From assembly GCA_028825115.1 (NCBI GenBank), contig JAPKAV010000002.1, forward strand, positions 126,604 through 190,603: DNA of 64,000 bases. Direction: 5' to 3'. This document shows positions 3,966 to 64,000 of this stretch, in pieces. The notes below the pieces were generated by a model. That model had not been told where the DNA came from, did not search any database, and saw nothing but the letters and a program-made list of their open reading frames with translations. Position 1 is the first letter of the stretch. Every line of letters begins with the position of its first letter. This DNA comes from Candidatus Nanopelagicales bacterium. GTDB lineage: Bacteria > Actinomycetota > Actinomycetes > S36-B12. A program made the translations under genes and the position numbers.

Positions 3966-4005
3966 GTTACTAGCGGGTAACATAGGCCTTTCACAAGGAG
4001 AAAAA

Positions 4006-9187: not shown

Positions 9188-9553
9188 CTAGTCTAGGGCA
9201 GAAGTGTCGACAACGCTGTAGTCCAGATCGGCCAGTGCTGAAGCGACGCAATTGACCTCTCGGGCCGTCCGCAGTAGTTGTGCTCCCACGGCGCTGAGCG
9301 AGTCTAGAAGGGCTTCGGGCCGCTGTGCACCAGATGCTGTACGAGCGGTTGCATAGAGCCGGCGCATCAAATCAATATCGGTCTGTATTCGCTCACGTAG
9401 CACCCATGCCAAAGCCACGGGGTCTTTACTGCTCTGCGAATCCCGGAACTCCCCGGGCAGCCGATCCAGGAGCCATCGGGTTACCTGGCCGGGAAACTCC
9501 GGGTCGTGTGCCGACACCAAGTCGAGCGGCCATCCGGGGCGCGAAATGGTCAT
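9188..9553 (-). CDS. hypothetical protein
   Basis: 121-aa ORF packed between acn (4-nt overlap) and dxs (4-nt gap) on the same strand. No motif recognised. Confidence 0.45.
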
Positions 9554-38162: not shown

Positions 38163-39356
38163 CTAGTTGTGGAAAACCATTTTTGCAACTGCCGGTGCCG
38201 GGTTATCGACCCGGCTAAGCGCATACTGAACGAATCGGGCGACCTGTTCTTCCTCGACTAAGAAACCATCGTGGCCAACTACAGACTTGATGACGTGCAA
38301 TTGATCCGCCCCTGGCGTTAAGTCCACAATCTCTTGTTGCAGTCGAAGCGGGAATAATCGATCAGAATCAATTCCCACCACAGTCAGCGGAGCAGTAATT
38401 GTTCCCAGCGAACGTTCCACTCCTCCTCGTCCCTCACCTAGGTCAAATAGGCTCATGGCTCGCGTAAGTGCAATATAGGTATTGGCATCAAAACGCCGCG
38501 CCAGCTTGTTCGCATGGTGGTCTAAATACGATTCGATTGCGAAGCGACCGCCAATTATTGGCGGCTCCTCCCCCTGCGCGCTGCGACCAAAACGAGTGTC
38601 GAGTTCGTTTTCGCTGCGGTAAGTTAAGTGGGCGATTCGACGAGCTAAACCCATGCCGGCAACGGGCCCAACGGAAGAGTCGTAGTAATCACCGCCCTGA
38701 AAATGTGGGTCCAACTCGATCGCCGCGAGCTGAACCGCATGTATTCCGATTTCATCGGCACTGACCGCCGCGGTCGAACCAAGAACAAGACCGCCTCGAA
38801 CTGATTCCGGGTGCCGAACCATCCATTCCAAGACCCGCATTCCGCCTAGTGACGGGCCCAGCATCAGTGCATAGGACTCAATTCCGAGGAATTGCATGAG
38901 TTGGTACTCAACCCACACCATGTCGGCAATCGTGATGACGGGAAAACGCGATCCCCACGCTTTCGAATCGGGGGCAATACTGGAAGGTCCGGTTGTTCCC
39001 TGACACCCGCCCAGGACGTTGGCACACACAACGAAGTGGGTATCCGTATCGATCGGCGCACCCGGCCCCACCAGTGAGTTCCACCAACCACCAGTTTTGT
39101 GCCCAGGTCCGGCTTCTCCAGTCGCATGTGAGTCGCCCGTCAATGCATGCGCGATGTATATCGCATTACTCCCCTCGGGATTTAACTCGCCCCAAGTTTG
39201 GTACGCAACCCTGATCTGTTCGAATTGGAATCCAGAAACAGTAGTAAATGGTCCACACTCAAAAAAAAGCCTTTCGCCCACGGGAAACCCCTCCCGCCAC
39301 GATCCGCTGGCGGGAGGGGTTCCTTCGTAAGTCAGAACTCCGTATTGCATGGACAT
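38163..39356 (-). CDS. metX: homoserine O-acetyltransferase
   Basis: 397-aa alpha/beta hydrolase with the nucleophile motif GPSLGGM and N-terminal features typical of MetX. It directly abuts the metY stop. Confidence 0.95.
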   Translation of the reverse strand: MSMQYGVLTYEGTPPASGSWREGFPVGERLFFECGPFTTVSGFQFEQIRVAYQTWGELNPEGSNAIYIAHALTGDSHATGEAGPGHKTGGWWNSLVGPGAPIDTDTHFVVCANVLGGCQGTTGPSSIAPDSKAWGSRFPVITIADMVWVEYQLMQFLGIESYALMLGPSLGGMRVLEWMVRHPESVRGGLVLGSTAAVSADEIGIHAVQLAAIELDPHFQGGDYYDSSVGPVAGMGLARRIAHLTYRSENELDTRFGRSAQGEEPPIIGGRFAIESYLDHHANKLARRFDANTYIALTRAMSLFDLGEGRGGVERSLGTITAPLTVVGIDSDRLFPLRLQQEIVDLTPGADQLHVIKSVVGHDGFLVEEEQVARFVQYALSRVDNPAPAVAKMVFHN

Positions 39357-40670
39357 TTACTTTTGGGCCGCCGCGAATCCAAGTTCCAAATCAGCCAGAA
39401 TGTCGGACAAACCTTCCAGTCCCACCGCGAGACGCACCAATCCCGGTGTCACTCCACCAGAAAACTGTTCCTCTTCGCTCAACTGCGAGTGAGTGGTGGA
39501 TGCAGGATGGATGACCAAGCTTCGGACATCCCCAATATTAGCAACGTGACTATGTAATTCCAGACCCTCGACAAACTTCTTGCCTGCCTCGACCCCACCA
39601 GCGATTTCAAAACTGAGAACCCCGCCTGTGCCCTTTGGTGCATATTTTTGACCGTTGGAATACCACGGGCTCGTTGGCAAGCCAGCGTAGTTAACTGACA
39701 CTACTTCCGGCCGTTTTTCTAGCCACTGGGCGACGCTGAGCGCGCTGTCAGTGTGTCGCTGCACTCGCAATGAAAGAGTTTCGATTCCCTGCGCAATCAA
39801 GAACGCGTTAAATGGTGACACTGCGGCTCCCAGATCACGTAGCAACTGAACCCGCGCTTTAAGGATAAAGGAAAGGTTCACCCCGAATGCCCCGTCAACG
39901 CCGAGGTCTCGGGCATAAACCAAACCGTGGTAACTGGGATCCGGCTGGTTGTAGTTGGGGAAGCGTTCCGGGTATTTGGCGTAGTCGAATTTACCGGCGT
40001 CGACGATGACGCCAGCCACGGCTGTTCCGTGCCCACCGAGATATTTCGTGGCAGAGTGAATGACCACATCGGCACCGAAATCGATCGGAGTAATCAGATA
40101 GGGAGTTGCGACCGTATTGTCGACAATTAGTGGAACGCCAAACTCGTGCGCAACCGAGGCAACCCCAGAAATGTCGAGGACATCGTTTCTCGGATTAGCC
40201 AGTGTTTCCCCGTAAAAGGCCTTGGTATTTGGTCGGATTGCCGCTTTCCATGATTCCAAGTCATCCGCATTTTCAACGAATGACACTTCGATTCCCAGCT
40301 TTGGTAGCGTGTAATGGAACAGATTGTAGGTGCCTCCATACAAGCTCGCGCTGGAGACAATGTGGTCACCGGCTTCAGCGATATTAAGAACCGCCAAGGT
40401 TTCCGCAGCCATACCGCTCGCCACCAACAATGCACCCACGCCACCTTCAAGGGCCGCAATGCGATCCTCAACTGCTGCTTGTGTTGGGTTCATGATTCGG
40501 GTATAAATATTGCCTAATTCTTTTAGTGCAAAAAGGTTAGCCGCATGCTCAGTGTCTTTAAATACATATGCCGTCGTCTGATAGATAGGTAATGCACGAG
40601 CACCCGTAGCTTCATCAGCAATTTGTCCCGCATGTATTTGCTTTGTGTCAAAAGTCCATTGATCGCTCAT
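39357..40670 (-). CDS. metY: O-acetylhomoserine aminocarboxypropyltransferase (sulfhydrylase)
   Basis: Cys/Met-metabolism PLP enzyme with the PLP-Lys motif HSATKYLGGHG. Start at MSDQWTFDTKQIHAG with a GGGAGA RBS. The ORF opens at 40763 inside the leader. Confidence 0.95.
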   Translation of the reverse strand: MSDQWTFDTKQIHAGQIADEATGARALPIYQTTAYVFKDTEHAANLFALKELGNIYTRIMNPTQAAVEDRIAALEGGVGALLVASGMAAETLAVLNIAEAGDHIVSSASLYGGTYNLFHYTLPKLGIEVSFVENADDLESWKAAIRPNTKAFYGETLANPRNDVLDISGVASVAHEFGVPLIVDNTVATPYLITPIDFGADVVIHSATKYLGGHGTAVAGVIVDAGKFDYAKYPERFPNYNQPDPSYHGLVYARDLGVDGAFGVNLSFILKARVQLLRDLGAAVSPFNAFLIAQGIETLSLRVQRHTDSALSVAQWLEKRPEVVSVNYAGLPTSPWYSNGQKYAPKGTGGVLSFEIAGGVEAGKKFVEGLELHSHVANIGDVRSLVIHPASTTHSQLSEEEQFSGGVTPGLVRLAVGLEGLSDILADLELGFAAAQK

Positions 40671-40786
40671 TTTTTTCTCCCTAAAGTTGTGTGTTTGGTT
40701 CGTTAGTCGGACGCATGGGTGCACCTCTTCCTCCTGCGTCTGCGTCTGAGCAAAGAACACCATTGCTCACTCAGATGGAGGTGCTT

Positions 40787-40850: not shown

Positions 40851-40958
40851 GGCCCGCGCTTGCCACAACACACGTGGCCAGGTCTCCACCGGGAGCACCC
40901 CACCGCGGTTGGAGGGTTGCCGTCTAGCTAGCCGGGGCTTAAAGCTGGACTCTTGACC
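40851..40958 (-). promoter_or_regulatory. SAM-IV riboswitch aptamer
   Basis: Minus-strand RNA reads GGUCAAGAGUCCAGCUUUAAGCCCCGGCUAGCUAGACGGCAACCCUCCAACCGCGGUGGGGUGCUCCCGGUGGAGACCUGGCC...GGCAAGCGCGGGCC. It carries the invariant SAM-IV core (AAGCCCCGGCU, CGGCAACCCUCCAACCGCGGUGGGGUGC, GCAAGCGCGGG) as I remember it from the actinomycete consensus. It lies upstream of metY-metX. Confidence 0.85.
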
Positions 40959-46662: not shown

Positions 46663-49488
46663 CTAGCTGCAGCCAGAGGTGCTGCCGCAACCCTCGCAGA
46701 CGTAGCAGCTACCGGCTGGGCGCATCTTGATCCCACAGGTCATGCAGAGGGGCGCATCAGAGGCAGTGCCAGTGATCGCCTCTAGTAACTCGGCACTTGA
46801 ATGCACTTCAATCGGGGCTTGAGCCACAGGCGTTACCACCAGATCTGCCCCTTGCTCATTGGTGTCAAGGTCGATAGCCGGTGCGGTTGCGGGTGCGTAG
46901 TTGTTGTGCACCGCAGCCGTTCGTTCTTCGGCCGTGAAGATCCCCAATGCTTCCCGCTGTTCGAAACTGAGATGATCCAGTGCCAGTCTGCGGAAAATGT
47001 AATCCATCATGGATTGAGAGATCCGAATATCTGGATCATCGGTCATTCCAGCCGGCTCAAAGCGCATGTTGACAAACTTGTTAACAAAGGCCTCAAGCGG
47101 TACGCCGTATTGCAATGCAATGCTTATCGCAATAGAGAAAGCATCCATTACCCCGGCCAAGGTTGACCCTTGTTTGCCGAGTTTAAGGAATACCTCGCCG
47201 AGTTGGCCGTCGTCATAGCTTCCCGCGGTCATGTAGCCCTCAGCCCCGGCAACAGAGAAAGAAGTCGTCTGACTCGGTCGCGACTTCGGAAGTCTGCGAC
47301 GGACCGGGTTCACACCGACAACGACCCCCTCCACCGGATCGTCAGCTGTCTTTGCCTTTGCATCACTGAGTGGTTGTCCCACCTTGCAGTTATCCCGGTA
47401 GATCGCGAGCGCCTTAATGCCCATTTTCCAACCCTGGAAGTAGATTTCCTCAACTTCCTCAACTGTGGCATCTTCTGGCATATTTACCGTCTTACTTATT
47501 GCACCAGAAATGAACGGTTGCACGGCAGCCATCATGCGAACGTGACCCATCGGCGCAATCGAACGCGCGCCCATCGCCGTGTCAAAAATGGCGTAGTGCT
47601 CCTGCTTGAGCCCTGGCGCATCAATGACGTGGCCGTTTTCACCAATAAATTCGATAATCGCTTCGACTGTTTCTTCAGCGTATCCGAGCTTACGAAGTGC
47701 ACGTGGAATGGTTTGGTTCACGATTTGCATCGATCCGCCACCGACAAGTTTCTTGAACTTGACCAGTGAGAAGTCAGGCTCGACACCCGTTGTGTCGCAG
47801 TCCATCATGAAACCAATTGTTCCTGTTGGTGCTAACACTGACGCTTGAGCATTCCTCCAACCGTGTGCCTCACCTAACGTTAAAGCCTCTTCCCAGACTT
47901 TCACCGCCAACGCGGTTACATCGCCATCGAGATTACTAAACCGCCTGATGTTGTCATTGGCTGCCGCATGCCTACGCATCACGCGCTTGTGTGCATATTC
48001 ATTGCGTGCATAGCCTTCATAAGGTCCCACAATTCCAGCTAACTCGGCACTGCGCTTGTACGCGGTTCCGTTCATTAGCGAAGTTATACCCGCCGCAAAT
48101 GCCCGGCCGGCCTCAGAATCGTAGGGCAAGCTCGTCGCCATCAGCAGGGCGCCCAGATTTGCGTAGCCCACTCCCAGTTGGCGGTAACGCCGAGTCGTGT
48201 CACCAATTGGTGCTGTCGGGAAGTCGGCGAAACAGATTGAAATATCCATGGCTGTAATGACGTACTCAACTGCTTTAGAGAAGCGCTCCGCATCAAATGT
48301 GTCATCTTCTTTCAGGAACTTCAGTAAGTTCAGGCTCGCTAAGTTGCACGATGAGTTATCAAGACTCATGTATTCAGAGCATGGATTCGACGCGTTGATC
48401 CGACCCGTTTCAGGGTTGGTGTGCCAATCATTAATCGTGTCATCGTATTGAATACCAGGATCAGCACAAGCCCAAGCAGCCTCGGTAATCTTGTGGAAAA
48501 GTCCAACCGCATCAACAGTTTCAATGGTCTGGCCATCGGTTCGTGAAGTCAGGCCAAATGGCTCTCCATTTTCAACCGCTGACATAAACAGGTCAGACAC
48601 TCGGACCGAGTTATTGGCATTTTGGTACTGAACACTGGAAATATCAGCACCACCTAAATCCATGTCGTAGCCGGCATCGCGCAGGACTCGAATTTTGTCT
48701 TCCTCGCGTACCTTGGTCTCAATAAACTCTTCAATATCGGGGTGATCCACGTCAAGGACAACCATTTTTGCAGCTCTACGCGTCGCCCCTCCTGATTTGA
48801 TAGTTCCTGCTGAGGCATCAGCCCCACGCATAAATGACACTGGACCCGAAGCTGTTCCACCGGATGAGCGCAGCACCTCCTTGCTGGATCGGATCCGAGA
48901 CAGGTTCAGTCCCGCTCCTGACCCACCTTTAAAAATCATGCCCTCTTCGCGGTACCAATTAAGTATCGAATCCATGGTGTCGTCCACGCTAAGGATGAAA
49001 CAGGCACTCACCTGTTGCGGGGACGTCGTCCCCACGTTGAACCACACTGGCGAATTGAATGCGAATACTTGGTGTAGCAACATGTGCGTTAGTTCATGCT
49101 CAAAGATTTCCGCATCCTGATCAGTTCGGAAGTACCCATTCTCGCGACCCGACTTGGTGTAAGTGAGCACTACTCGATCAATCAGTTGCTTTAAGCTCCA
49201 TTCTCTATTATTGGCACCGAGAGCCCCGCGGAAATATTTTGTAGTAACGATTGTGGAAGCATTGACGCTCCAAAAATCTGGGTACTCCACCCCGCGCTGT
49301 TCAAATACTATTTCTCCTGTTCGCCAATTATTTTGGAGAACATCTCGGCGTTCCCAATTCACCTCGTCATACGGATGCATACCCTCAGTCGTAAACAACC
49401 GTTGCATTTGCAGGCCAGGGCCGGCAATGGTGTTGTGGACGAACTCATCCTTGGGAGTGATCACCGGGGCTTCTGGTGCCTGTGTCAT
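46663..49488 (-). CDS. nrdJ: adenosylcobalamin-dependent ribonucleoside-diphosphate reductase (class II)
   Basis: 941-aa ORF with RNR core motifs (NPCSEY, active-site Cys regions) and a Cys-rich C-terminal tail CMTCGIKMRPAGSCYVCEGCGSTSGCS. It sits downstream of nrdR. Confidence 0.95.
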   Translation of the reverse strand: MTQAPEAPVITPKDEFVHNTIAGPGLQMQRLFTTEGMHPYDEVNWERRDVLQNNWRTGEIVFEQRGVEYPDFWSVNASTIVTTKYFRGALGANNREWSLKQLIDRVVLTYTKSGRENGYFRTDQDAEIFEHELTHMLLHQVFAFNSPVWFNVGTTSPQQVSACFILSVDDTMDSILNWYREEGMIFKGGSGAGLNLSRIRSSKEVLRSSGGTASGPVSFMRGADASAGTIKSGGATRRAAKMVVLDVDHPDIEEFIETKVREEDKIRVLRDAGYDMDLGGADISSVQYQNANNSVRVSDLFMSAVENGEPFGLTSRTDGQTIETVDAVGLFHKITEAAWACADPGIQYDDTINDWHTNPETGRINASNPCSEYMSLDNSSCNLASLNLLKFLKEDDTFDAERFSKAVEYVITAMDISICFADFPTAPIGDTTRRYRQLGVGYANLGALLMATSLPYDSEAGRAFAAGITSLMNGTAYKRSAELAGIVGPYEGYARNEYAHKRVMRRHAAANDNIRRFSNLDGDVTALAVKVWEEALTLGEAHGWRNAQASVLAPTGTIGFMMDCDTTGVEPDFSLVKFKKLVGGGSMQIVNQTIPRALRKLGYAEETVEAIIEFIGENGHVIDAPGLKQEHYAIFDTAMGARSIAPMGHVRMMAAVQPFISGAISKTVNMPEDATVEEVEEIYFQGWKMGIKALAIYRDNCKVGQPLSDAKAKTADDPVEGVVVGVNPVRRRLPKSRPSQTTSFSVAGAEGYMTAGSYDDGQLGEVFLKLGKQGSTLAGVMDAFSIAISIALQYGVPLEAFVNKFVNMRFEPAGMTDDPDIRISQSMMDYIFRRLALDHLSFEQREALGIFTAEERTAAVHNNYAPATAPAIDLDTNEQGADLVVTPVAQAPIEVHSSAELLEAITGTASDAPLCMTCGIKMRPAGSCYVCEGCGSTSGCS

Positions 49489-49573: not shown

Positions 49574-50065
49574 TTAGTTGTGGGTGTGTGTAACTCGGTC
49601 CGGTTCTCGGCCTGTGGGTTCGCCTTCAGCTCGAAGGAGGGCAATTTCGGCCTCAAAATCATTGAGAGTGTCAAAGGAGCGATAGACCGAAGCGAAGCGA
49701 AGGTAGGCGACTTCATCAAGTTCACGCAGGGGAGCCAAAATAGCGAGTCCCACCTCCTGGGCAGGGATTTCGCTATTGCCTGTGGCGCGGAGAAAATCTT
49801 CGACACGCTGAGCAAGTAGTGCAAGCTCATCGTCTGATACTGGCCTTCCCTGACACGCCTTACGCACCCCACTGACCACTTTGCCACGATTAAATGGCTC
49901 ACTGACGCCGCTTCGTTTTACCACTCCTAGGGCGGCTACTTCCGCAGTTGTAAATCGCCTCCCACAGTGTCCACACTCACGACGGCGGCGGATTGCCAAT
50001 CCTTCATCGATTGTGCGCGAATCGATGACTCGTGAGTCGTCTTGGCGGCAGAATGGGCACTTCAT
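49574..50065 (-). CDS. nrdR: transcriptional repressor NrdR
   Basis: MKCPFC...[10 protein letters not shown] zinc ribbon followed by an ATP-cone. The start is set at ATG 50065. The ORF opens at 50089. Confidence 0.95.
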
Positions 50066-50315
50066 GCGCTGACCCCTATCCTCGTTCAATCACAACAGTC
50101 ACATGGGAACTTTTGTCCCCTTGCGTAACACGCGAAACGCTAGTTCAACCATCCTGAGGATTACCTGTGGATGATCTGCGATCAACCTGTGCGCTCGTTC
50201 CATAACCTGCAAACCACAACCTGTGGACGAAATACTAGAGTGTAACTACTACATCTTGGGGTCTGAACCTAATGGATGCACAAGCGTTATGCAACCTATT
50301 TCGACCGGCGTGTTG

Positions 50316-54275: not shown

Positions 54276-55650
54276 TGTCTGCCGCTAGTGCCGCCGGCAC
54301 CAAGGCGCTCACGTCACTCCCGGTGTCAACGTGAGCAATATTGACCTGCTCGCCCGATTCGTGAATCCGCGAGATTAGGTCCCCACGGCTGTAAGGGATT
54401 GTGACATCAATAGCAACCAGAGTTTGTGGCAGTTTTGTATCAATTCGCGCGAGAAGTTCCTCGAGGCCCGCCCCAGTGTGGGCACTGACAACAATCGATT
54501 CAGGGAACGCTCCCTGAATCGCCACGATATCCATGGGATCGGCGATATCGCTCTTGTTTATCGCAATCAATTCTGGGATCTCACCTGCGCCAATTTCGTT
54601 GAGCACTTCCCGCACCGCGGATATCTGCCCAAAGGGATCCTCATCACACCCATCAACAACGTGAACGATCAACGTCGCTTCCTGAACCTCTGTCAAAGTG
54701 GACCTGAACGCTTCCACAAGATCATGGGGCAAGTGGCGCACAAAACCCACGGTGTCAGCGATCGTGAGCTCTTTGCCGCCGGGAGCCCTCAACTTTCGCA
54801 CAGTGGGATCTAGGGTGGCAAACAAAGCATCTTGAACAAGTACTCCAGCTCCAGTTAGTGCATTGAGCACACTTGACTTGCCGGCATTGGTGTAACCCGC
54901 CAGAGCCACAGTTGCAATCCCTGAGGCCTCCCGTGCAGCACGCTGGGTTCTGCGGGTTGCCTCGAGTGCTTTGAGTTCTCTGCGCAACTTCGTCATCTGG
55001 GCTCTGATTCGCCGTCGATCTGTTTCAATTTTCGTCTCACCCGGGCCCCGAGTTCCCAATCCCCCACTGGCACCACCTGCGTGACCGCCAGCCTGACGAC
55101 TCAGTGACTCTCCCCATCCGCGTAGTCGCGGCAAAAGGTACTGCATTTGCGCAAGAGAAACCTGGGCTTTACCTTCACGACTACGCGCATGCTGGGCGAA
55201 GATATCGAGAATCAACCACGTGCGATCAACAACCTTGACCTTGACGATGCCTTCTAATTTCCGGAGCTGGCCGGGAGACAATTCGCCATCACAAATCACC
55301 GTGTCAGCCCCCGTGTCGGCCACAATCAAAGCAAGTTCCTTGACCTTTCCTGAACCCAAATAGGTGGCAGGATCTGGAGCGTCACGTCGCTGAATCACAC
55401 CTTCAATCACTTCTGATCCGGCGGTCTGAGCCAATTGAGCCAACTCACGTAATGAGCGCTCCGCCTGTGCAACGGTTCCTGTGGTCCACACCCCGGCAAG
55501 CACTACCCGTTCGAGTCGGATCTGGCGATACTCAACCTCAGTGACGTCTTGTAACTCAGTGGAAAGAGAAAAGACCCTTCGGAGCCCTTGTCTTTGCTCA
55601 AGCTCAAGGCTGATGTCACCATCTTGGCCCAGATTGGATTCACTCACCAA
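54244..55650 (-). CDS. hflX: GTPase HflX
   Basis: HflX N-terminal domain plus G motifs (GYTNAGKSS, DTVGF, NKSD). Confidence 0.95.
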   Translation of the reverse strand: MVSESNLGQDGDISLELEQRQGLRRVFSLSTELQDVTEVEYRQIRLERVVLAGVWTTGTVAQAERSLRELAQLAQTAGSEVIEGVIQRRDAPDPATYLGSGKVKELALIVADTGADTVICDGELSPGQLRKLEGIVKVKVVDRTWLILDIFAQHARSREGKAQVSLAQMQYLLPRLRGWGESLSRQAGGHAGGASGGLGTRGPGETKIETDRRRIRAQMTKLRRELKALEATRRTQRAAREASGIATVALAGYTNAGKSSVLNALTGAGVLVQDALFATLDPTVRKLRAPGGKELTIADTVGFVRHLPHDLVEAFRSTLTEVQEATLIVHVVDGCDEDPFGQISAVREVLNEIGAGEIPELIAINKSDIADPMDIVAIQGAFPESIVVSAHTGAGLEELLARIDTKLPQTLVAIDVTIPYSRGDLISRIHESGEQVNIAHVDTGSDVSALVPAALAADIERQGFLRAG

Positions 55651-55737
55651 GGCAGTATCGCAGATGACTCAAATGGGGGACGTTTGTAACGTGAGACCGT
55701 TGCCTTCACAGTATTAACACTTGGCCAGGTGGACAGG

Positions 55738-57177
55738 TCAGCCGTCCAGCTCAACCCGGCGCTTGGCCACGTATTCAACTAACTCTGCCTTGATGGCTTC
55801 ATCCATGGGTGGCTCTTCGTACTTGTCAAGGGTGTCCAAATAGATGGCGCGGGCACGCCCCGCTGTGTCAATTGAGCCGTTGCGGGTCCACCGCTCGAAA
55901 TTGTCGGAGCTGGAAAGCCACGGCCGGTAAAAACAATCACGGAAATTCTCCATGGTGTGCGCTGCTCCCAGGAAGTGTCCACCGTGACGTACTTCGTCAT
56001 GGGCATCGAAAGCCAGATCATCGTCAGTAAATTCAATCGGCTGGAACTCGGCAATAAGCTGCTCAAGAATCTGGATGTCAATGATGTACTTCTCAAAACA
56101 TGACACGAGTCCACCCTCGAGCCAACCGGCCGAATGCAGCACCACATTTGCGCCGGCAAGGAATGTTGGCATCAAAGTCATGACACTTTCGTAGGCCGCC
56201 TGTGCATCAGGCAGCTGAGAAGCATTAAGTCCACCACCTGCCCTGAATGGCACCTTGTATGCACGCGCGATTTGCCCAATACAGTATTGGCCAACTGCAG
56301 ACTCTGGGGTACCAAATTGCGGCGAACCTGTCTTCATATCGATGTTGGACAAGAATGAACCCATAATGACCGGTGTCCCTGGTCGAATCAATTGAGTGAG
56401 GGCGATACCCGAAAAAGCTTCAGCCACTTGTTGTGCCAGCGTGGCTGCAATGGACACTGGTGACATGGCTCCCATAAGAAGAAATGGCGTAACAATTACA
56501 GGTTGTTTAGCTCTGCAATAGACAAACAGTGAATCCAGCATTCGGTCATCCCAGCGCAGTGGAGAGTTGCAGTTGATCAAGGAATATCCGAATGGTTTTT
56601 CTTCAATTGACTTGCGACCACCCAACACGATTTCAGCCATGGCAATCGTGTCGGCTGCATTTTCGCCCGTCACTACGTTGCCCATAATGAATTTGTCGGT
56701 CAAAGTGAAAGCATTAAAAACCATATCAAGGTGGCGAGAGTCAAGAGATGCATCATTGGGTTCCACTACAACCCCACCCACGCTGTCCATCGCTGCAAAA
56801 CTTTGCGCCAATCGGCAAAAATTCTGGAAGTCACCGAGGGTTCCATCACGCCGCACATCCCCATCGCGCACGAAAGGGGCCCCATACACACTCGAGAACA
56901 CCATGTTCTTTCCACCAATGGTCACGTTGTTCGCCGGATTCCGAGCCTGCATTTCAAATTGTTCGGGGACCAGTTTTAACTGCTCCAGGAGGAACTCAGG
57001 ATCGAAATAGACGATGTTTTCCTCGACCCGTTGCCCCGCTTGTCGGAACAGTTCGTGGGCCTCTTCCGAAAGAAACTCCACACCGATCTCGGACACGATT
57101 CGACGCCAGCCTCTGTCCAGCGTCGCCATTGACTCTGGCGAAAGAATCTCAAAGCGCGGTAATTCATTTTGCAGCAT
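55738..57177 (-). CDS. MttB-superfamily methyltransferase, non-pyrrolysine type (quaternary amine:corrinoid methyltransferase candidate)
   Basis: 479-aa uninterrupted ORF with length and sequence character typical of the trimethylamine methyltransferase (MttB) family. TGA stop. There is no in-frame TAG. An in-frame TAA lies 18 nt upstream of the ATG. Confidence 0.88.
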   Translation of the reverse strand: MLQNELPRFEILSPESMATLDRGWRRIVSEIGVEFLSEEAHELFRQAGQRVEENIVYFDPEFLLEQLKLVPEQFEMQARNPANNVTIGGKNMVFSSVYGAPFVRDGDVRRDGTLGDFQNFCRLAQSFAAMDSVGGVVVEPNDASLDSRHLDMVFNAFTLTDKFIMGNVVTGENAADTIAMAEIVLGGRKSIEEKPFGYSLINCNSPLRWDDRMLDSLFVYCRAKQPVIVTPFLLMGAMSPVSIAATLAQQVAEAFSGIALTQLIRPGTPVIMGSFLSNIDMKTGSPQFGTPESAVGQYCIGQIARAYKVPFRAGGGLNASQLPDAQAAYESVMTLMPTFLAGANVVLHSAGWLEGGLVSCFEKYIIDIQILEQLIAEFQPIEFTDDDLAFDAHDEVRHGGHFLGAAHTMENFRDCFYRPWLSSSDNFERWTRNGSIDTAGRARAIYLDTLDKYEEPPMDEAIKAELVEYVAKRRVELDG

Positions 57178-57234
57178 GATTTTCCCAATCTTTTAGCAGG
57201 CCCCTTGTTGTGGTCTGTGACTATAGTAGTATAA

Positions 57235-57262
57235 ATGGAACACGAGTTCCATAATATGGAAC
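57235..57262. promoter_or_regulatory. three-half-site operator candidate ATGGAAC-acga-GTTCCAT-aat-ATGGAAC
   Basis: Read directly in the 150-nt divergent spacer between the MttB-like gene and iclR. Two overlapping perfect 7-bp inverted repeats share the central half-site. Confidence 0.5.
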
Positions 57263-57327
57263 ATATTCGAATTTATCGTGTAGCATCTAGATCACAGGGC
57301 ACGGGACAATGATCACGAAAGGGAGCC

Positions 57328-58122
57328 ATGGGATCGAACATCCAGTCAATTAACCGCGCAGCGAGTATCCTGGCTCTCATCTTGGAGTCGGAAAATTCGC
57401 CAAGTTTCACGCAAATAATGGAAACCACCGGGCTGGCACGAAGCACCGCCTCGCGGCTCCTCGCCAGCTTGGAGGACAACCACCTGGTAGCCAGAAATGA
57501 AGAAAATTTGTACAGCGCCGGCCCCATGATCACGCGGTTCTCGCACTCAACTGGCCCGGAAGAGGATTTAATCGCGCAGTCCCAGGAAGCTATGGAACTC
57601 TTGAGCCAGGAAACTAGGGAAGCGATTAACCTGGCAATCCTCGTGGGCGATGAAGTACAGCAGATCTCCCAGCTGGATAGCAAGTACCTGATGGGGAATG
57701 TGAACTGGGTGGGACTTTCAGTTCCCACGCATTGTTCCGCGGTGGGTAAGGCCTTTTTGGCGTTCGGAAATGCCGCTACCACGGGGAGGCTCAAAAAGCG
57801 CACTGCGAAGTCAATCACGAACAGGGCTGCCCTTGAGAAGGACCTTAAAAAGGTACGGGCACGTGGCTGGGCCCTCTCAGACTCGGAATTGGAAGTCGGT
57901 CTCACGGCGATTGGTGCGCCCATATTCGGTGCCGACGGCCATGTGGTGGCAGCTCTCAGCGTTTCCGGTCCCACCATGCGACTGAACAAGGATCGGGTAG
58001 AGGTAATTGGCGCTCTCATTGCTCGACAAGGAAGCCTAATTTCACAGCAACTCGGTTACACAGCACAGCACGGCACCGTTAAGGAACACTCCACGTCAGA
58101 TCGAAAGGTGGGCGCAGCATGA
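57328..58122 (+). CDS. IclR-family transcriptional regulator
   Basis: N-terminal wHTH (INRAASILALI...FTQIMETTGLARSTASRLLASLED) and a C-terminal IclR effector domain. Confidence 0.9.
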   Translation: MGSNIQSINRAASILALILESENSPSFTQIMETTGLARSTASRLLASLEDNHLVARNEENLYSAGPMITRFSHSTGPEEDLIAQSQEAMELLSQETREAINLAILVGDEVQQISQLDSKYLMGNVNWVGLSVPTHCSAVGKAFLAFGNAATTGRLKKRTAKSITNRAALEKDLKKVRARGWALSDSELEVGLTAIGAPIFGADGHVVAALSVSGPTMRLNKDRVEVIGALIARQGSLISQQLGYTAQHGTVKEHSTSDRKVGAA

Positions 58123-58784
58123 CGCACGAAGAAATCCTGAAAAGCCTGTACGAGGAGGTCATGGTGGGCAATGGTCCTGCCGTACTTGAATTAACGAATC
58201 AAGGGCTGGCGGATGGGCTAGGCCCGGAACCGATCCTGTTTGAGGCTCTTATTCCCAGCCTGGAGGAAGTGGGGGCACGCTTCGAGCGTGGCGACTATTT
58301 CGTTCCGGAAATGCTGATTGCCGGCCGCGCGATGAGTGGCGCCCTCGACATTTTGCGCCCATTGCTCGCTGAAACCGGGGTGGAAACTGTGGGAACATTC
58401 CTGATGGGCACCGTCAAAGGGGATGTTCACGATATCGGTAAGAACTTGGTCAACATCATGCTCGAAGGCGCTGGATTTCATGTAATTGACCTGGGCGTAC
58501 AAGTATCTCCAGAGAAATTTGTCGCCGCCATCGAAGAATACAAGCCCGATATTGTGGGCATGAGTGCGTTTCTTACCACCACAATGCCCATGTTCAAAGT
58601 TAATATCCACAACATCACAAAAGCGGGGCTGCGCGAACAAGTCATAGTGTTGGTTGGTGGAGCACCTGTTACCCGCGAGTATGCCGACGCGTGCGGAGCT
58701 GATGGCTATGCTGCAGACGCGGCAACAGCGGTACGACTAGCAAAGAAACTCATTGCCGGACGACGCGCCTTAGCAAAGGTCTAG
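58119..58784 (+). CDS. cobalamin-binding corrinoid protein (MtgC/MtbC-like)
   Basis: ATGA overlap with iclR. N-terminal B12-binding cap helix bundle plus a Rossmann-like B12 domain with the DxHxxG motif (GDVHDIGKN). Confidence 0.9.
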   Translation: MTHEEILKSLYEEVMVGNGPAVLELTNQGLADGLGPEPILFEALIPSLEEVGARFERGDYFVPEMLIAGRAMSGALDILRPLLAETGVETVGTFLMGTVKGDVHDIGKNLVNIMLEGAGFHVIDLGVQVSPEKFVAAIEEYKPDIVGMSAFLTTTMPMFKVNIHNITKAGLREQVIVLVGGAPVTREYADACGADGYAADAATAVRLAKKLIAGRRALAKV

Positions 58785-58789
58785 TTTAA

Positions 58790-59176
58790 ATGCCAAAGCT
58801 GCTTCCCCTGCTCGAACATGTGGTCAAAAAGCCAATCTGGGATTGTCGGATGTGTGGGCAGTGCGTTCTCCATTCAACCGGCATGACCTGTCCCATGACC
58901 TGCCCGAAGACTTTGCGAAACGGTCCATGTGGAGGGGTTCGACCAGACGGCAACTGTGAAGTCGTTCCCGAAATGCCATGTGTCTGGGTAAAAGCCCATG
59001 ACCGCAGTCAACACATGCCATTAATCCCCAAGAAATGGCGCGATGAGTTCAATCATTTGCGGCCACCGGTAAATAACGCATTACAGGGTGAGTCGTCGTG
59101 GATCAACCTGATTAACGGCAAGGATCAACAAACTCCAGCCGGCTGGGTTCCGGGAGAAGAGCGCCATGAGCACTGA
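58790..59176 (+). CDS. MetV-like protein (methylene-THF reductase C-terminal-like Cys-rich domain)
   Basis: 128-aa ORF with CRMCGQCVLHSTGMTCPMTCPKTLRNGPCGG and further Cys residues. It overlaps the next gene by 11 nt. Confidence 0.8.
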   Translation: MPKLLPLLEHVVKKPIWDCRMCGQCVLHSTGMTCPMTCPKTLRNGPCGGVRPDGNCEVVPEMPCVWVKAHDRSQHMPLIPKKWRDEFNHLRPPVNNALQGESSWINLINGKDQQTPAGWVPGEERHEH

Positions 59177-60146
59177 GCCAAGCAATAATGACTCCCACAG
59201 TATTAATGTGTTTGAGGAGCTGTGCCTAAGTCGGGCGCGGCCCGTGATGACCGCAGAATTACGCTCATTTGACGGCGAAAATTTAGCCGTCGTCGAAAAG
59301 GAACTCACAGAACTCACGCCCTACATCGATGGAATCAACATCACCGATAACCCCGCAGCGCATGCACATGCAAGTAACACCGCCATGGCTATTGCGGTAA
59401 AGACCTTGGGCGGGAACCCAATCATGCAAATCGTGTGCCGCGATAAAAATCGACTCGCAATTCAGGCGGATTTGGTTGGCGCCGGCATGTTTGGCGTCGA
59501 AAATTTCTGTGCACTTACCGGCGACGACGTGACTGCCGGCGACGAAAAAGAAGCGCGTCGCGTATTTGACCTCGACGGACCGCAGTTGGTCTCTGTCATG
59601 ACCGGAATCTCACAGGGCAGTTACCTTTCAGGACGCAAGTTGAAAAGTGAACCGCACATGTTTATTGGGGCCGTTGAAAACCCCACGGCTCCTCCGCTGG
59701 ATTACCGGGTTGATCGTGCGCTAAAGAAAGTTGACGCCGGTGCAAAATTTATCCAATTGCAGATCTGCTATCAACCCGAAAAGCTGGAACACTTTATAAG
59801 AGGATGCGTTCTCAATGGCGTTGCGGAGCGCGCCGCGCTGCTGCCCACCGTAGTTTTCACCAAGAGCGCCCGCCCGCTCGGCTTTATGGATACTTCAGTC
59901 CCTGGAATCAGCGTCCCAAAGGCAGTCATCGATCGGGTCGCCAACAGCGAGGATCAAGCTGAAGAGTCCTACCAATTAGTGAAAGAACAAGTCATTTACG
60001 CACTAGGACTCCCTGGTGTTGCTGGAATTCACTTCTCTGATTTTCGCCATGACGGGAGCCTGCAAAGAATGCTTCAAGAATTAGGGCTGGGCCCCAAGGG
60101 ACACGATCGGCAACCGAAGGAGGATAAAAATGCATACAGTCATTAG
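59166..60146 (+). CDS. metF: methylenetetrahydrofolate reductase (MetF family, acetogen-type)
   Basis: 326-aa ORF with ITDNPAAHAH, VCRDKNRLAIQADLVGA and NFCALTGDD motifs of the MTHFR TIM barrel. Confidence 0.85.
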   Translation: MSTEPSNNDSHSINVFEELCLSRARPVMTAELRSFDGENLAVVEKELTELTPYIDGINITDNPAAHAHASNTAMAIAVKTLGGNPIMQIVCRDKNRLAIQADLVGAGMFGVENFCALTGDDVTAGDEKEARRVFDLDGPQLVSVMTGISQGSYLSGRKLKSEPHMFIGAVENPTAPPLDYRVDRALKKVDAGAKFIQLQICYQPEKLEHFIRGCVLNGVAERAALLPTVVFTKSARPLGFMDTSVPGISVPKAVIDRVANSEDQAEESYQLVKEQVIYALGLPGVAGIHFSDFRHDGSLQRMLQELGLGPKGHDRQPKEDKNAYSH

Positions 60147-60990
60147 TTCACCGAATAAGACCGTCACCATTGGATGTGACCAACCATTTTGCATTATTGG
60201 CGAACGCATCAACCCAACCGGACGCAAAAAGTTTCAGGAGCAGTTGCGTGCTGGTGATCTGTCATCCGTTGAAATTGATGTGCACGCCCAGATCGCCGGC
60301 GGAGCCACCATGCTTGACGTCAACATGGGTGCGCCCTTCGTTGACGAACCTCAGATGCTTGCCAACGCGATTAAATTGATTCAATCCATCACGGATCTGC
60401 CCCTGTGTATTGACTCTTCGGTGTTTGAAGCCCTTGAAGCCGGGTTGGCTGCCTACGAAGGCAAGGCGCTGATCAACTCGGTCACCGCCGAGGACGAACG
60501 TATGGCAATGATTTTTCCGCTAGTCAAAAAATATGGTGGCGCGATCATTGCTCTGCCTAATGACGAATTCGAAATCCCTGACGCACCGGAACGACGCCTC
60601 GAACTTGTTGACCACATAGTTCGCACGGCGACCGACAAGTACGGGATTCCCATTGAAGATATTGTGATTGATCCACTCGCAATGCCCATCGGAGCAGACT
60701 CCACCATGGTTGTTCGCACTTTGGAAACAATTGAAATGATTCGACAAAAGTACGGCCTCAACACGACCCTGGGCGCATCCAACGTTTCCTTCGGCATGCC
60801 GGATCGACACACTTTGAACTCCGTTTTTATTCCAATGGCCATGCAGTCCGGTCTCACTAGCGCGATCATGGATTCCCGAACTGGCCAAATCGTGACGGCG
60901 GTCCGCGCAGCAGACCTGATGAAAGGCAATGACGAATGGGGTGCAAATTGGATTGCGGCACACCGAGCAAAAATTGCACAAGCTAGTTAG
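60130..60990 (+). CDS. methyltetrahydrofolate:corrinoid methyltransferase (pterin-binding domain, MtgA/MtqA/AcsE-like)
   Basis: AAGGAGGA RBS and a 17-nt overlap with metF. The IIGERINPTGRKKF and LCIDSS motifs are those of pterin-binding methyltransferases. Confidence 0.85.
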   Translation: MHTVISSPNKTVTIGCDQPFCIIGERINPTGRKKFQEQLRAGDLSSVEIDVHAQIAGGATMLDVNMGAPFVDEPQMLANAIKLIQSITDLPLCIDSSVFEALEAGLAAYEGKALINSVTAEDERMAMIFPLVKKYGGAIIALPNDEFEIPDAPERRLELVDHIVRTATDKYGIPIEDIVIDPLAMPIGADSTMVVRTLETIEMIRQKYGLNTTLGASNVSFGMPDRHTLNSVFIPMAMQSGLTSAIMDSRTGQIVTAVRAADLMKGNDEWGANWIAAHRAKIAQAS

Positions 60991-61038
60991 CGGGCGTGGC
61001 AATGCACGAGAATCCGTTGAGATAGAGAGGGTGGCTAC

Positions 61039-62931
61039 GTGACTAACTCCTTCGCCCCTTTCGGCTCCTTGAATGAGGAGTCCACAAACGCTCACATGGA
61101 TTCGCCGCTCGTACGGGTAGACATCAGTTTTGAACCCAGTAATAAAACTGTTCGAGTACCCACCGGTGTCTCGGTCTTTGATGCCGCAAGCTGGAATGGC
61201 TTGGCCATCGACTCAACGTGTGGTGGAAATGGGACATGTAAAAAGTGCAAGGTCCAAATCCTTGAAGGCAGTGTCCCAGTCACCAATCTGGATTGGCGGG
61301 CTTTCAAGCAAGAAGAACTCGATGCCGGTTGGCGCCTAGCTTGTGTCTCCCATGCAACGAACACACTTAAGGTGAGCGTTCCTCCGCTCACCACTCGCCC
61401 GAAAGCGTCGACCGTGGGTGTGGGGCGCCAGGTGATTCTGCGACCGTCAGTTATTAAACGTTTTATTGAGGTAGTAGAACCCTCGTTGACGGATCAGCGC
61501 TCTGATTTGCGGCGCGTCCTTGACGAGATTGACGACCTCACCGTAAACATCGATCCGCAACTGATTAAAGAACTGCCCAAAGTGTTGCGCTGTTCAGAAT
61601 ACAAAGTCACCTGCGTAGTTGTGGCCGATAAGTTGATTGCCATTGAGCCGGGTGATACAACTGCGGCGCTTTACGCAATTGCCTACGATCTAGGAACTAC
61701 CACGGTTGTGGCCTCACTGATGGATCTGTCAACCGGTACGCCAATGGCTGTCGCCTCTATGCTCAACAAGCAGCAGCCATTCGGCGCTGATGTGATCAGC
61801 CGAATCAGTGCCACCATGCTTGACGAAGACGCATTGGACAAGCTACAAGAGCTGGCACATACGACTCTGGGTGATCTCACCAACGAAGTGTGCGCTGAAG
61901 CTGGAATAGCCCCTGAAGAAGTTTTTGAAATCGCTATCGCCGGCAATGCAACGATGGTGCAAATCGCTCTAGGAATCGACCCTGAGCCGCTTGGCGTCGC
62001 TCCTTTCATAATGGCAACCGAGAGCTATCCCACGTACTTAGCGAACGAACTTGGCGTGTTTTTACACCCGCGTGCGCGCGCCTACCTCTTCCCCGCCCTC
62101 GGCGCCTACGTGGGTGGAGACATTATTTCTGGGGCGTTGGCCACAGGAATGGATCGGGACAAACGGATTCGACTGTTTATCGATATTGGCACTAACTGTG
62201 AACTCGTTCTTGGAGATGGAGAGAGACTAATTGCAACAGCTGCTCCTGCCGGACCGGCGTTCGAGGCCGCATCGATTCGGTGCGGAATGCGGGCAGCAGC
62301 CGGCGCGGTTGAAGTAGTCACTATTACCGATACTGATGTCCTGCTTGAGGTGATTGAAGACGCCGAGCCAATTGGACTCTGCGGGTCGGGCCTGGTCGAT
62401 GCGGTGGCCGAACTGGCCAAAATGGGGATCGCCGACCCCTCCGGCCGTTTTATTACCGATGAGGCCATGAAAGACAAGTGGTCCGCACTCGCTCACCGGC
62501 TGGTCACAATTGACAAGGAACGCGTGTTCATTCTTTCATTTAATGACAACAATGAAGCGGGGGTGTTTCTCTCGCAGCGTGATGTCCGCGAACTCCAGTT
62601 CGCCAAGGCGGCAATTTCCACCGGTTGGAAAATGCTTCTCGAGGAATTTGGGGTCGCTGAGGAAGATATCGCGCAAGTTTTACTCGCCGGATCCTTCGGC
62701 ACTTACCTGTCGGCCACAAACGCAATCGCGATCGGGTTAGTTCCCAAAATTCCTGCTCTACGAGTAATCAGCGCCGGCAATGTGGCCGGAGAAGGTGCAA
62801 AAATGGTTCTCCTTTCTGGCCCGGAGCGCAATGGCGCCACCACGTTAATGCGCGAAATCGCCTATTTGGAGCTCTCGGATCGCACTGATTTCAATGATCG
62901 GTTTGTCGATGAGCTCGCTTTTCCGATTTAG
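61039..62931 (+). CDS. RACo-type corrinoid reductive activase ([2Fe-2S] ferredoxin domain and ASKHA ATPase domain)
   Basis: N-terminal CGGNGTCKKCKV...LAC plant-type ferredoxin pattern, followed by a long ASKHA/DUF4445-like region (DLGTTTVV, DIGTNCELV). The start is ambiguous between GTG 61039 and ATG 61096. Confidence 0.85.
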   Translation: MTNSFAPFGSLNEESTNAHMDSPLVRVDISFEPSNKTVRVPTGVSVFDAASWNGLAIDSTCGGNGTCKKCKVQILEGSVPVTNLDWRAFKQEELDAGWRLACVSHATNTLKVSVPPLTTRPKASTVGVGRQVILRPSVIKRFIEVVEPSLTDQRSDLRRVLDEIDDLTVNIDPQLIKELPKVLRCSEYKVTCVVVADKLIAIEPGDTTAALYAIAYDLGTTTVVASLMDLSTGTPMAVASMLNKQQPFGADVISRISATMLDEDALDKLQELAHTTLGDLTNEVCAEAGIAPEEVFEIAIAGNATMVQIALGIDPEPLGVAPFIMATESYPTYLANELGVFLHPRARAYLFPALGAYVGGDIISGALATGMDRDKRIRLFIDIGTNCELVLGDGERLIATAAPAGPAFEAASIRCGMRAAAGAVEVVTITDTDVLLEVIEDAEPIGLCGSGLVDAVAELAKMGIADPSGRFITDEAMKDKWSALAHRLVTIDKERVFILSFNDNNEAGVFLSQRDVRELQFAKAAISTGWKMLLEEFGVAEEDIAQVLLAGSFGTYLSATNAIAIGLVPKIPALRVISAGNVAGEGAKMVLLSGPERNGATTLMREIAYLELSDRTDFNDRFVDELAFPI

Positions 62932-62994
62932 ACCACAAAAACTATTTTCTAAAATGGGATATAAGTGCAACGAGTTCTGATATATCATAAAAAC

Positions 62995-63624
62995 ATGGGT
63001 AACTCTCTGGCTAATCAGGCCTATACGAGTATCCGCCGCCTAATTGTTACCGCAGAACTGCCGCCCGGTGCTGTGCTATCAGAATCTGAGCTACAAAATT
63101 CCCTTGGCTTTGGACGCACGCCCATCCGAGAAGCGCTACGAACTTTGGCGACTGACCATCTCGTTGATGTCTATCCTCGACGCGGCATGTTCGTGGCAGG
63201 GATCGACGTTCGCGACCTGCGGGCACTCAGCGAAGTACGTTCTGTTCTTGAACCCTTTGCCGCAGGCGTTGCCGCCGAAAGACGTGACGATGGTGACGTT
63301 GCCGCGATCGACCAGCTGCTCGCTGAAATCCGAGTTCACAAGACAATGGATGTTCGGACGTTAATAGATCTCGATGAACGAATTCATCATCAGGTGTACG
63401 CCGCAACGCACAATTCATTTTTGATCTCTGATCTCAACCGCTACTACACCCACGCTCTTCGCATCTGGCTCCTGGCTTTGGACAATGTTACAAACCTGGG
63501 TGAAGCTGTTGCAGAACACTCAGAGTTGCTTTCCGCCATTCGGGATTCAAATGTTGATCTTGCGGTAAAAATTATGACCAGCCACATTAATGATTTTGAA
63601 GATGAAATGCGCAAGGCTCTGTAA
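62995..63624 (+). CDS. GntR-family (FadR/FCD-type) transcriptional regulator
   Basis: wHTH (SESELQNSLGFGRTPIREALRTLATDHLV) plus an FCD-like C-terminal domain. The ORF opens at 62965. Confidence 0.9.
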   Translation: MGNSLANQAYTSIRRLIVTAELPPGAVLSESELQNSLGFGRTPIREALRTLATDHLVDVYPRRGMFVAGIDVRDLRALSEVRSVLEPFAAGVAAERRDDGDVAAIDQLLAEIRVHKTMDVRTLIDLDERIHHQVYAATHNSFLISDLNRYYTHALRIWLLALDNVTNLGEAVAEHSELLSAIRDSNVDLAVKIMTSHINDFEDEMRKAL

Positions 63625-63671
63625 TACCTAAAGCACACGCCCAGTGAAACCGAATCAGTAAAGGAAACGCG

Positions 63672-64000
63672 ATGAGTGTACTGCCATCAAAGGCCAAGGT
63701 AGTAGTAATCGGCGCAGGAATTGTGGGCAACTCTGTTGTCTATCATTTGGCGAAGCTCGGGTGGAAAGACATCGTGCAGGTTGACAAAGGACCATTGCCT
63801 AACCCCGGTGGGTCGACCGGACATGCATCAAACTTCATTTTTCCCGTGGATCACTCAAAGGAAATATCGGAATTAACCCTAGACAGTATGCGCCAATACA
63901 AGGAGTTCGGCGTTTTCGTTGAATCTGGCGGTATTGAAGTGGCACGCACTCCAGAACGCATGCAGGAATTGCAACGAAGGTTGCAGTCAGCCCGAGCGTT
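63672..64000 (+). CDS. FAD-dependent oxidoreductase, dimethylglycine-oxidase-like, N-terminal fragment running off the right edge
   Basis: Own translation gives MSVLPSKAKVVVIGAGIVGNSVVYHLAKLGWKDIVQVDKGPLPNPGGSTGHASNFIFP... It has a GxGxxG FAD motif, and the GPL..PGGST.HA segment resembles the covalent-flavin region of Arthrobacter dimethylglycine oxidase. An AAGGAAA RBS lies upstream. Confidence 0.75.
   Translation, partial: MSVLPSKAKVVVIGAGIVGNSVVYHLAKLGWKDIVQVDKGPLPNPGGSTGHASNFIFPVDHSKEISELTLDSMRQYKEFGVFVESGGIEVARTPERMQELQRRLQSARA

Follow-up and report, generated by a model that had tools for sequence, protein, structure and literature searches.

The last 8 kb of a 64 kb stretch of DNA from a Candidatus Nanopelagicales bacterium (contig JAPKAV010000002.1; the whole 64 kb is referred to below as the window) carry a gene cluster that probably encodes a cobalamin-dependent pathway for the demethylation of glycine betaine (GB). 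One gene, for a member of the MttB methyltransferase superfamily lacking pyrrolysine (Pyl), is read from the minus strand; the others follow in the opposite direction, starting with a regulator and including the corrinoid protein, the methylenetetrahydrofolate reductase (MTHFR), the methyltransferase to tetrahydrofolate (THF) and the reductive activase expected of such a system. The last of them, for a protein of the dimethylglycine dehydrogenase (DMGDH) type, is cut by the end of the window. The features are:

55738-57177, minus strand: mtgB-like non-pyrrolysine MttB-superfamily methyltransferase, 479 aa (PF06253, E 2e-185), proposed to be a glycine betaine:corrinoid protein Co-methyltransferase
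57236-57262, no strand assigned: putative IclR operator in the mttB/iclR divergent promoter region, with three half-sites, TGGAAC-N4-GTTCCA-N5-TGGAAC
57328-58122, plus strand: transcriptional regulator of the IclR family, whose gene opens the operon (HTH_IclR and IclR_C in Pfam)
58119-58784, plus strand: mtgC-like corrinoid (B12-binding) protein, 221 aa (B12-binding_2 and B12-binding; motif GDVHDIGKN)
58790-59176, plus strand: MetV-like, Cys-rich small MTHFR subunit (DUF5981, 'MTHFR C-terminal'; PF12225, E 6e-25)
59166-60146, plus strand: MetF-family MTHFR, MetF2-like (PF02219, E 8.5e-22)
60130-60990, plus strand: mtgD/mtgA-like pterin-binding methyl-corrinoid:THF methyltransferase (Pterin_bind; NF005719, 313 bits against a cutoff of 259)
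61039-62931, plus strand: RACo-type reductive activase, with a [2Fe-2S] ferredoxin domain and an ASKHA ATPase (Fer2, RACo_linker, Raco_middle and RACo_C_ter)
62965-63624, plus strand: regulator of the GntR/FCD family, encoded after the activase and before the DMGDH-type protein (GntR and FCD in Pfam)
63674-64000, plus strand: dimethylglycine dehydrogenase/oxidase-type flavoprotein (DAO-FAO_M-GCV_T), N-terminal 109 codons

The initial annotation of this DNA had proposed a complete corrinoid methyl-transfer module with a non-Pyl MttB and a divergent pair of transcription units, and all of the components were found; its range of candidate substrates can now probably be narrowed to GB. Pfam and NCBIfam profiles bore out each assignment in the order iclR, corrinoid protein, MetV, MetF, pterin methyltransferase and RACo. 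A script reproduced the reported overlaps of 4 nt (ATGA) between iclR and the corrinoid protein gene, 11 nt between metV and metF, and 17 nt between metF and the pterin methyltransferase gene, whilst the remaining junctions in the plus-strand cluster, as far as the GntR/FCD gene, are gaps of 5, 48 and 33 nt. These overlaps and the conserved gene order suggest that the cluster is co-transcribed. Scans of 55400-64000 for consensus promoters and terminators gave fewer sites than shuffled sequences and nothing informative on operon boundaries, and were not used.

The cluster extends past its earlier description, to the GntR/FCD regulator and the start of the DMGDH-type gene on the same strand. The GntR/FCD gene is found at the same position in four of the related contigs and loci compared here, which are labelled L0xx (L003, L023, L024 and L027). 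The last 327 bases of the window are 90% identical to residues 1-109 of an 839 aa protein in L003 with the domains DAO, FAO_M, GCV_T and GCV_T_C, and contig L024, which is 99% identical to the window, has a complete 839 aa gene of this type followed by those for the beta and alpha subunits of electron transfer flavoprotein (ETF).

The MttB homologue, of which the window has a single copy, matches PF06253 with 617 bits (cutoff 25) over residues 2-477, corresponding to profile positions 24-499 of 500. Among solved structures it scores 421 bits against 4yyc, 383 bits against the MtgB of Desulfitobacterium hafniense (2qne/9yce; 42% identity over the full length) and 131 bits against the Pyl-containing MttB of Methanosarcina barkeri (7xcl; 27% identity). 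The sequence of 4yyc is 100% identical to a Sinorhizobium meliloti MttB (L020 14875-16449, CP090106.1) encoded divergently from an mtgC-DUF1638-metV-metF-mtgD-RACo operon. This is an unpublished structural genomics entry, described as a 'putative trimethylamine methyltransferase', so a structure of the aerobe-type enzyme already exists; the CP090106.1 record is labelled pSymB, yet at 3.7 Mb is probably the chromosome. A neighbour-joining tree, calculated without support values from these proteins and their actinobacterial, Paracoccus, roseobacter and Chloroflexota homologues, with MttB as the root and MtcB, MtpB, MtyB and MthB left out, grouped the actinobacterial proteins as a single clade, sister to a Chloroflexota/roseobacter clade and a rhizobial clade, and D. 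hafniense MtgB fell outside all of these.

The remaining proteins were likewise compared with profiles and solved structures. In translation, the corrinoid protein carries the DxHxxG motif as GDVHDIG; its best NCBIfam match is corrin_MtgC_2 (203 bits, below the cutoff of 370) and its nearest structures are 1y80 from Moorella (188 bits) and MttC (7xcn_M, 143 bits). The PF02219 MetF adjoins the PF12225/DUF5981 MetV with the 11 nt gene overlap, a MetVF-type pairing, and scores only 29 bits against the Thermus MTHFR, with no close solved structure, and hence is a divergent MTHFR. The activase gives a full-length alignment (332 bits), over residues 28-625, with the RACo of Carboxydothermus hydrogenoformans (3zyy) and has the four Pfam domains in order; its scores against the RamA model TIGR04270 (99.7 bits, cutoff 500) and the AcsV model (426 bits, cutoff 800) fall below the thresholds. 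The GTG start at 61039 is uncertain: similarity to 3zyy is seen only from residue 28 onwards and codon 20 is an ATG (61039-61098), so that the true start may lie downstream.

A pathway of this composition was described in aerobic Proteobacteria in 2025. Through proteomics and knockouts, Mausz et al. (PNAS 2025; PMC12478193) found that the aerobe Ruegeria pomeroyi DSS-3 demethylates GB via MtgB, MtgC and MtgD, the latter two being required for growth on GB. The MtgB homologues, RamA and a DUF1638 protein were induced on this substrate, and the most induced protein was MetF2, which is encoded beside mtgD and was proposed to oxidise methyl-THF (PMC12478193). The same study named S. meliloti as a species in which mtgBCDE lie together with the reactivation modules, noted that the genes for later steps of GB demethylation are often co-located in marine bacteria, and attributed about 5% of marine mtgC reads to Actinomycetota (PMC12478193). 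A preprint of December 2025 describes Phaeobacter inhibens strains in which mtgB1 or mtgC was knocked out, and considers what the reactivation of cobalt costs in the presence of oxygen (bioRxiv 10.64898/2025.12.19.695462).

By tblastn, homologues were found in 196 plasmid records, the majority of them belonging to Sinorhizobium, Leisingera, Mesorhizobium, Paracoccus and Ruegeria. In both S. meliloti and Paracoccus methylovorus, mttB is divergent from genes for a B12-binding protein, a DUF1638 protein, an MTHFR C-terminal domain protein, an MTHFR, a methyl-THF:cobalamin methyltransferase and an ASKHA protein. All six window proteins match this order and orientation, including a MetV-like gene before metF and metF directly upstream of the pterin methyltransferase gene, hence the module, with its private MetV-MetF pair, is shared between aerobic Alphaproteobacteria and Actinobacteria. 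Identities to the S. meliloti cassette are 45% for MttB, 47% for the corrinoid protein, 54% for MetV, 36% for MetF, 46% for the methyltransferase and 31% for RACo, and the MetV-like protein is also 54% identical to its positional counterpart in Paracoccus, annotated as an 'MTHFR C-terminal domain-containing protein'. The window shares with the aerobic MtgBCD systems of R. pomeroyi, P. inhibens and S. meliloti the PF06253 methyltransferase, the small corrinoid protein, the pterin-binding methyltransferase, a dedicated MTHFR, a COG3894/RACo-type ASKHA activase and, as in marine bacteria, linkage to genes for later steps of GB demethylation. It differs in having an actinobacterial host, in identities of 31-54% per protein, in an IclR-led operon with its own putative operator, in the GntR regulator and DMGDH-ETF genes on the same strand, and in lacking both DUF1638 and a nearby mtgE/bmt; the S. 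meliloti locus additionally contains bmt/mtgE and a betaine ABC transporter gene.

Three further known systems offer comparisons. The D. hafniense Y51 system (MtgB, MtgC and MtgA) has the same three-component logic and a reductive activase, but its host is an anaerobe, for which the methyl group serves as reductant, and MetVF genes are not described within that cluster in the literature compared. Methanosarcina MttB and MttC, with RamA (7xcl, 7xcn), provide a TIM-barrel methyltransferase of the same superfamily and a homologous corrinoid protein; however, RamA is a related but different type of activase, and methanogens transfer the methyl group to coenzyme M rather than THF. The C. hydrogenoformans RACo (3zyy)/AcsV shares the arrangement of N-terminal [2Fe-2S], linker, middle and ASKHA domains, whereas the partner of the window protein would be a small MtgC-type corrinoid protein instead of CoFeSP.

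The system is widespread in Actinomycetota. A search with the MttB homologue matched at least 8000 proteins at E<=1e-30; among the matches listed, 119 besides the window's own cluster were 66-72% identical, the named ones coming from metagenome-assembled genomes of Actinomycetes, Nanopelagicales or Nocardioidaceae. The cassette was present in all 18 actinobacterial loci examined, five of which lie on contigs of 0.78 to 2.27 Mb (L022, L023 and L025-L027), and the six-gene order is conserved across these 18 and two alphaproteobacterial loci beyond what chance would give, with the placement of the MTHFR varying. Three layouts occur: MetV-MetF lies inside the operon in the window, L001-L003, L009, L012, L023, L024 and L027; L022, L025 and L026 have a stand-alone MTHFR gene, for about 280 aa, beyond that for DUF1638 (in L026 beside FolD and PurU-like genes); and in L004-L008, L010 and L011 there is no MTHFR nearby. 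Four of the loci are from cultured organisms (L004, L005, L007 and L008), a genome scan finding the core, in which mttB is divergent from iclR and the genes for the corrinoid protein, pterin methyltransferase and RACo, in Kineosphaera limosa, two Pseudonocardia and Piscicoccus intestinalis. These are aerobic actinomycetes.

The initial annotation considered a system of this kind with its own MTHFR to be unexpected and uncharacterised in an aerobic setting, which is contradicted by the work on R. pomeroyi (PMC12478193), the P. inhibens preprint and the S. meliloti and Paracoccus loci. It had also raised the possibility that the operon was common and already characterised in this lineage: it is indeed common, being in 18 of 18 loci, but the characterised examples are proteobacterial, and we found no description of the system in Actinobacteria or Nanopelagicales in the literature. 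The locus is thus very likely to be an uncharacterised actinobacterial copy of the pathway described in 2025 in aerobic Proteobacteria, and not a new kind of system.

The 150 bp divergent region between mttB and iclR contains the palindrome and third half-site listed above. Its 16-mer, TGGAACNNNNGTTCCA, occurs once in the window, where 0.15 matches would be expected. The core GGAAC-N4-GTTCC is found exactly once in each of eight loci (L001-L003, L009, L012 and L022-L024), always 60-100 bp upstream of mttB, and degenerate versions are present in the high-GC Pseudonocardia, Kineosphaera and Piscicoccus. An IclR gene occupies the same position in all the actinobacterial loci, and the motif is conserved between mttB and iclR in loci ranging from approximately 52 to 70% GC. 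On the strength of this phylogenetic footprint, the palindrome is the predicted binding site of the IclR protein encoded at the head of the operon.

Taken with the gene content, domain architectures, residue conservation and synteny established here, the footprint supports a proposal in which we have considerable confidence: that the cluster represents an actinobacterial version of MtgBCD, the cobalamin-dependent pathway known from aerobes, and converts GB to dimethylglycine and methylene-THF with ATP-dependent reactivation of the corrinoid. The MtgB-like enzyme would take a single N-methyl group from GB and attach it to the Co(I) form of the MtgC-like corrinoid protein, releasing dimethylglycine, and the MtgD/MtgA-like pterin-binding methyltransferase would pass the methyl group from methyl-Co(III) to THF. 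The MetV/MetF pair is then proposed to oxidise methyl-THF to methylene-THF, for one-carbon oxidation or assimilation. Adventitious oxidation of the cobalt would be expected to be frequent in an oxic cell, and the RACo-type activase would return Co(II) to Co(I) using ATP and its [2Fe-2S] cluster. The system presumably tolerates oxygen in vivo. Further processing of dimethylglycine would fall to the downstream DMGDH-type flavoprotein with ETF, and expression would be controlled by the IclR regulator, acting at the conserved palindrome in the divergent promoter, together with the GntR/FCD regulator.

The direction assigned to MetV-MetF bears on an alternative use of the same genes. The corrinoid protein and pterin methyltransferase might form a split methionine synthase, whether as their main role or as a second one, with an unlinked homocysteine methyltransferase of the MtgE type and with MetVF working reductively, on the model of the dual-function system known from Ruegeria and Phaeobacter. 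Mutants of mtgC and mtgD are methionine auxotrophs in both R. pomeroyi and P. inhibens (PMC12478193; bioRxiv 10.64898/2025.12.19.695462), and MetH is absent from approximately 70% of the marine genomes carrying mtgBCD (PMC12478193). Neither metH nor metE was visible in the window, in a Pfam scan that covered about two-thirds of its smaller open reading frames. However, no S-methyltransferase gene of the MtgE/Bhmt type was found in the window cluster or in the Pfam-annotated actinobacterial neighbourhoods; the pairing of the operon with mttB and DMGDH-ETF genes points to catabolism; and methionine synthesis as the sole function would leave mttB unexplained. We therefore regard this use as unlikely, though it deserves to be kept in mind.

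Two loci elsewhere in the window also concern methionine and cobalamin. A SAM-IV riboswitch (40851-40958, minus strand, 89.9 bits) lies upstream of genes for a MetY-like Cys/Met pyridoxal phosphate-dependent enzyme (39357-40763, minus strand) and a MetX-like alpha/beta hydrolase (38163-39356, minus strand), from which homocysteine/methionine biosynthesis appears to be SAM-regulated. A class II, adenosylcobalamin-dependent ribonucleotide reductase is encoded at 46663-49488 on the minus strand, adjoining a gene (49574-50089, minus strand) annotated as NrdR in L024; the organism hence needs B12 independently of the methyltransferase system. No cobalamin riboswitch was detected in the window at the Rfam gathering thresholds.

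The case for GB as the substrate comes largely from the neighbourhoods of the related loci. In L002 and L003, which are relatives 92% identical to the window, mttB is directly followed by betA-like and betB-like genes. The mttB-hflX interval of L003 encodes a BetA-like GMC oxidoreductase, a BetB-like aldehyde dehydrogenase and an OpuA-type betaine ABC transporter, whose binding protein is an OpuAC, and beyond the GntR gene lie those for the 839 aa dimethylglycine dehydrogenase/oxidase-type protein and ETF. This reflects a strain-level indel between mttB and hflX: extra genes are present at L002 3546-6876 and L003 11441-18932, whilst in the window (55651-55737), L001 and L024 the interval is only around 90-170 bp. 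The betA-like, betB-like and OpuA-type genes are also found in L023, L026 and L027; L025 has a BCCT gene and DMGDH-ETF; L026 further carries PurU-like and FolD genes; and in Pseudonocardia (L005 and L007) DMGDH-like, SoxB and SoxA genes come next after mttB. Altogether, betaine and choline genes (OpuAC, BCCT, BetA, BetB, sarcosine oxidase or DMGDH) stand beside the cassette in 12 of the 18 actinobacterial loci. As this is the gene content expected for a route from choline through glycine betaine and dimethylglycine to sarcosine, with THF-linked one-carbon oxidation, GB is the most likely substrate; judged from such comparisons, it is very probably that of the window's MttB homologue.

The binding pocket is largely in agreement. 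Mutagenesis and a ligand-bound structure identified the contacts of MtgB with GB as Y97 and F356, through cation-pi interactions, and R312 and H348, which bind the carboxylate (Picking et al., PMC13080624); subtracting 16 from the chain index of 2qne gives this numbering, and each of the four contacts then falls on a residue of the type expected. The window protein and the 25 non-Pyl homologues aligned with it all retain R312 and H348, the ligands of the carboxylate, together with the aromatic contact Y97, which is Tyr98 in the window protein, whereas the equivalents of Y97, R312 and H348 in Methanosarcina MttB are V, Y and Y. The initial annotation had allowed that the substrate contacts might prove lost: three of the four betaine contacts of MtgB are in fact retained, and F356 is replaced by Gly356. 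The pocket motif is accordingly AGWLEGGL in the window protein, as in S. meliloti 4yyc, against AGILQYFM in MtgB. Four residues upstream of Gly356, Trp352 is invariant, within the same pocket pattern, in 25 of 25 other 'aerobe-type' homologues aligned, 4yyc included. From this alignment, Trp352 is a candidate to replace Phe356, and may serve as the second cation-pi partner.

The substitution could alternatively signify that the same machinery handles another methylated compound, such as proline betaine, carnitine, gamma-butyrobetaine, choline or phosphocholine, trimethylamine N-oxide, or dimethylsulfoniopropionate. Specificities for several different quaternary amines are found within the MttB superfamily, and the aromatic pair is not conserved amongst the members concerned (PMC13080624), and roseobacters have up to seven paralogues of unknown specificity (PMC12478193); moreover, the strain from which the window derives lacks adjoining betA, betB and opuA. 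Set against this are the conserved Tyr, Arg and His contacts, the single mttB copy in the window, the betaine or choline genes beside the cassette in two-thirds of the actinobacterial loci, and the presence in the same-strand cluster of a consumer of the product of GB demethylation, the DMGDH-type protein with ETF. A different substrate is in our estimation quite improbable.

Several observations nevertheless weigh against the proposal that the cluster is a GB-demethylating MtgBCD system. Searches of the window with tblastn found no betA, betB or opuA, none of these adjoins mttB, and no betaine transporter was identified. The MttB homologue is only 42% identical to the biochemically characterised MtgB and has Gly in place of F356, for which compensation by Trp352 is as yet a conjecture, whilst for the nearest structure, 4yyc, no published substrate was found in the literature. 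For the actinobacterial members, function is predicted from homology and gene context. MetF could equally work reductively. DUF1638, present in the systems of Proteobacteria, where it is a proposed partner in corrinoid reactivation, and in those of several Actinobacteria, was not found in the window by tblastn; its gene follows RACo in L022, L023 and L025-L027, is absent from the close relatives L003 and L024, and could be encoded elsewhere in the source genome. Finally, nothing in the window proves oxygen respiration. The initial annotation had deduced an oxygen-respiring organism from neighbouring genes, and these are present as it described, including aconitase (9550-12207), thiolase (3862-5196) and a FadB-type protein (5133-7289), along with a Pyr_redox_2 protein at 31438-32736 that is consistent with FprA; the aerobic physiology itself is deduced from relatives.

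The usual automated name for such proteins, 'trimethylamine--corrinoid protein Co-methyltransferase', echoed in the JGI names of homologues, and an Rfam match within mttB to PYLIS_3 ('pyrrolysine insertion sequence mttB'; 56137-56227, minus strand, 43.3 bits against a gathering score of 38) that starts at the codon aligned with Pyl might suggest a genuine trimethylamine methyltransferase with pyrrolysine-related recoding, but the sequence already refutes this, and it can for practical purposes be dismissed: the residue aligned with the methanogen pyrrolysine (X334 of 7xcl, Pyl334 of M. barkeri), which the initial annotation had marked for inspection, is Leu317 (also Leu in D. hafniense MtgB), encoded by CTT, with no in-frame UAG at this position, and the protein misses the Pyl-MttB equivalog TIGR02369 (279.7 bits against a cutoff of 525). 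The reading frame was verified by script to be uninterrupted as first described, with no internal stop or amber codon; it ends in TGA, and 18 nt before its ATG there is a TAA in frame. The PYLIS_3 match was rejected as a functional element, as there is no UAG, the 91 nt segment folds no better than shuffled sequences (z = -1.04; 31 of 200 shuffles did equally well), and no PYLIS match was found in seven related loci; it most likely reflects coding sequence homology to the methanogen mttB.

The recently discovered aerobic, B12-dependent catabolism of GB would thus extend from marine Proteobacteria to Actinomycetota, including genome-reduced planktonic lineages, and the presence of the cassette in the cultured genera Kineosphaera, Pseudonocardia and Piscicoccus makes direct testing possible. 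Annotation stands to gain as well: in oxic waters, mttB genes without Pyl routinely receive the name 'trimethylamine methyltransferase' and are even taken as markers of methanogenesis, and recognition of the cassette avoids such misreadings, as well as that of the spurious PYLIS_3 match at this locus. A metagenomic study of saline lakes, for instance, counted mttB as a methanogenesis gene and reported it in both the water column and sediment (PMC12174138); non-Pyl homologues like the present one are a likely source of such signals. The cassette also adds a demand for cobalamin to that of the class II ribonucleotide reductase in the window. In planktonic Actinobacteria related to Nanopelagicales it may even be the sole route for oxidising methyl groups derived from GB and choline, with the Trp352 pocket, DUF1638-free reactivation and an oxidative MetV-MetF pair. 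We offer this tentatively, as a possibility that is rather doubtful at present; if true, the osmolyte and one-carbon metabolism of these bacteria would be tied to an external supply of cobalamin.

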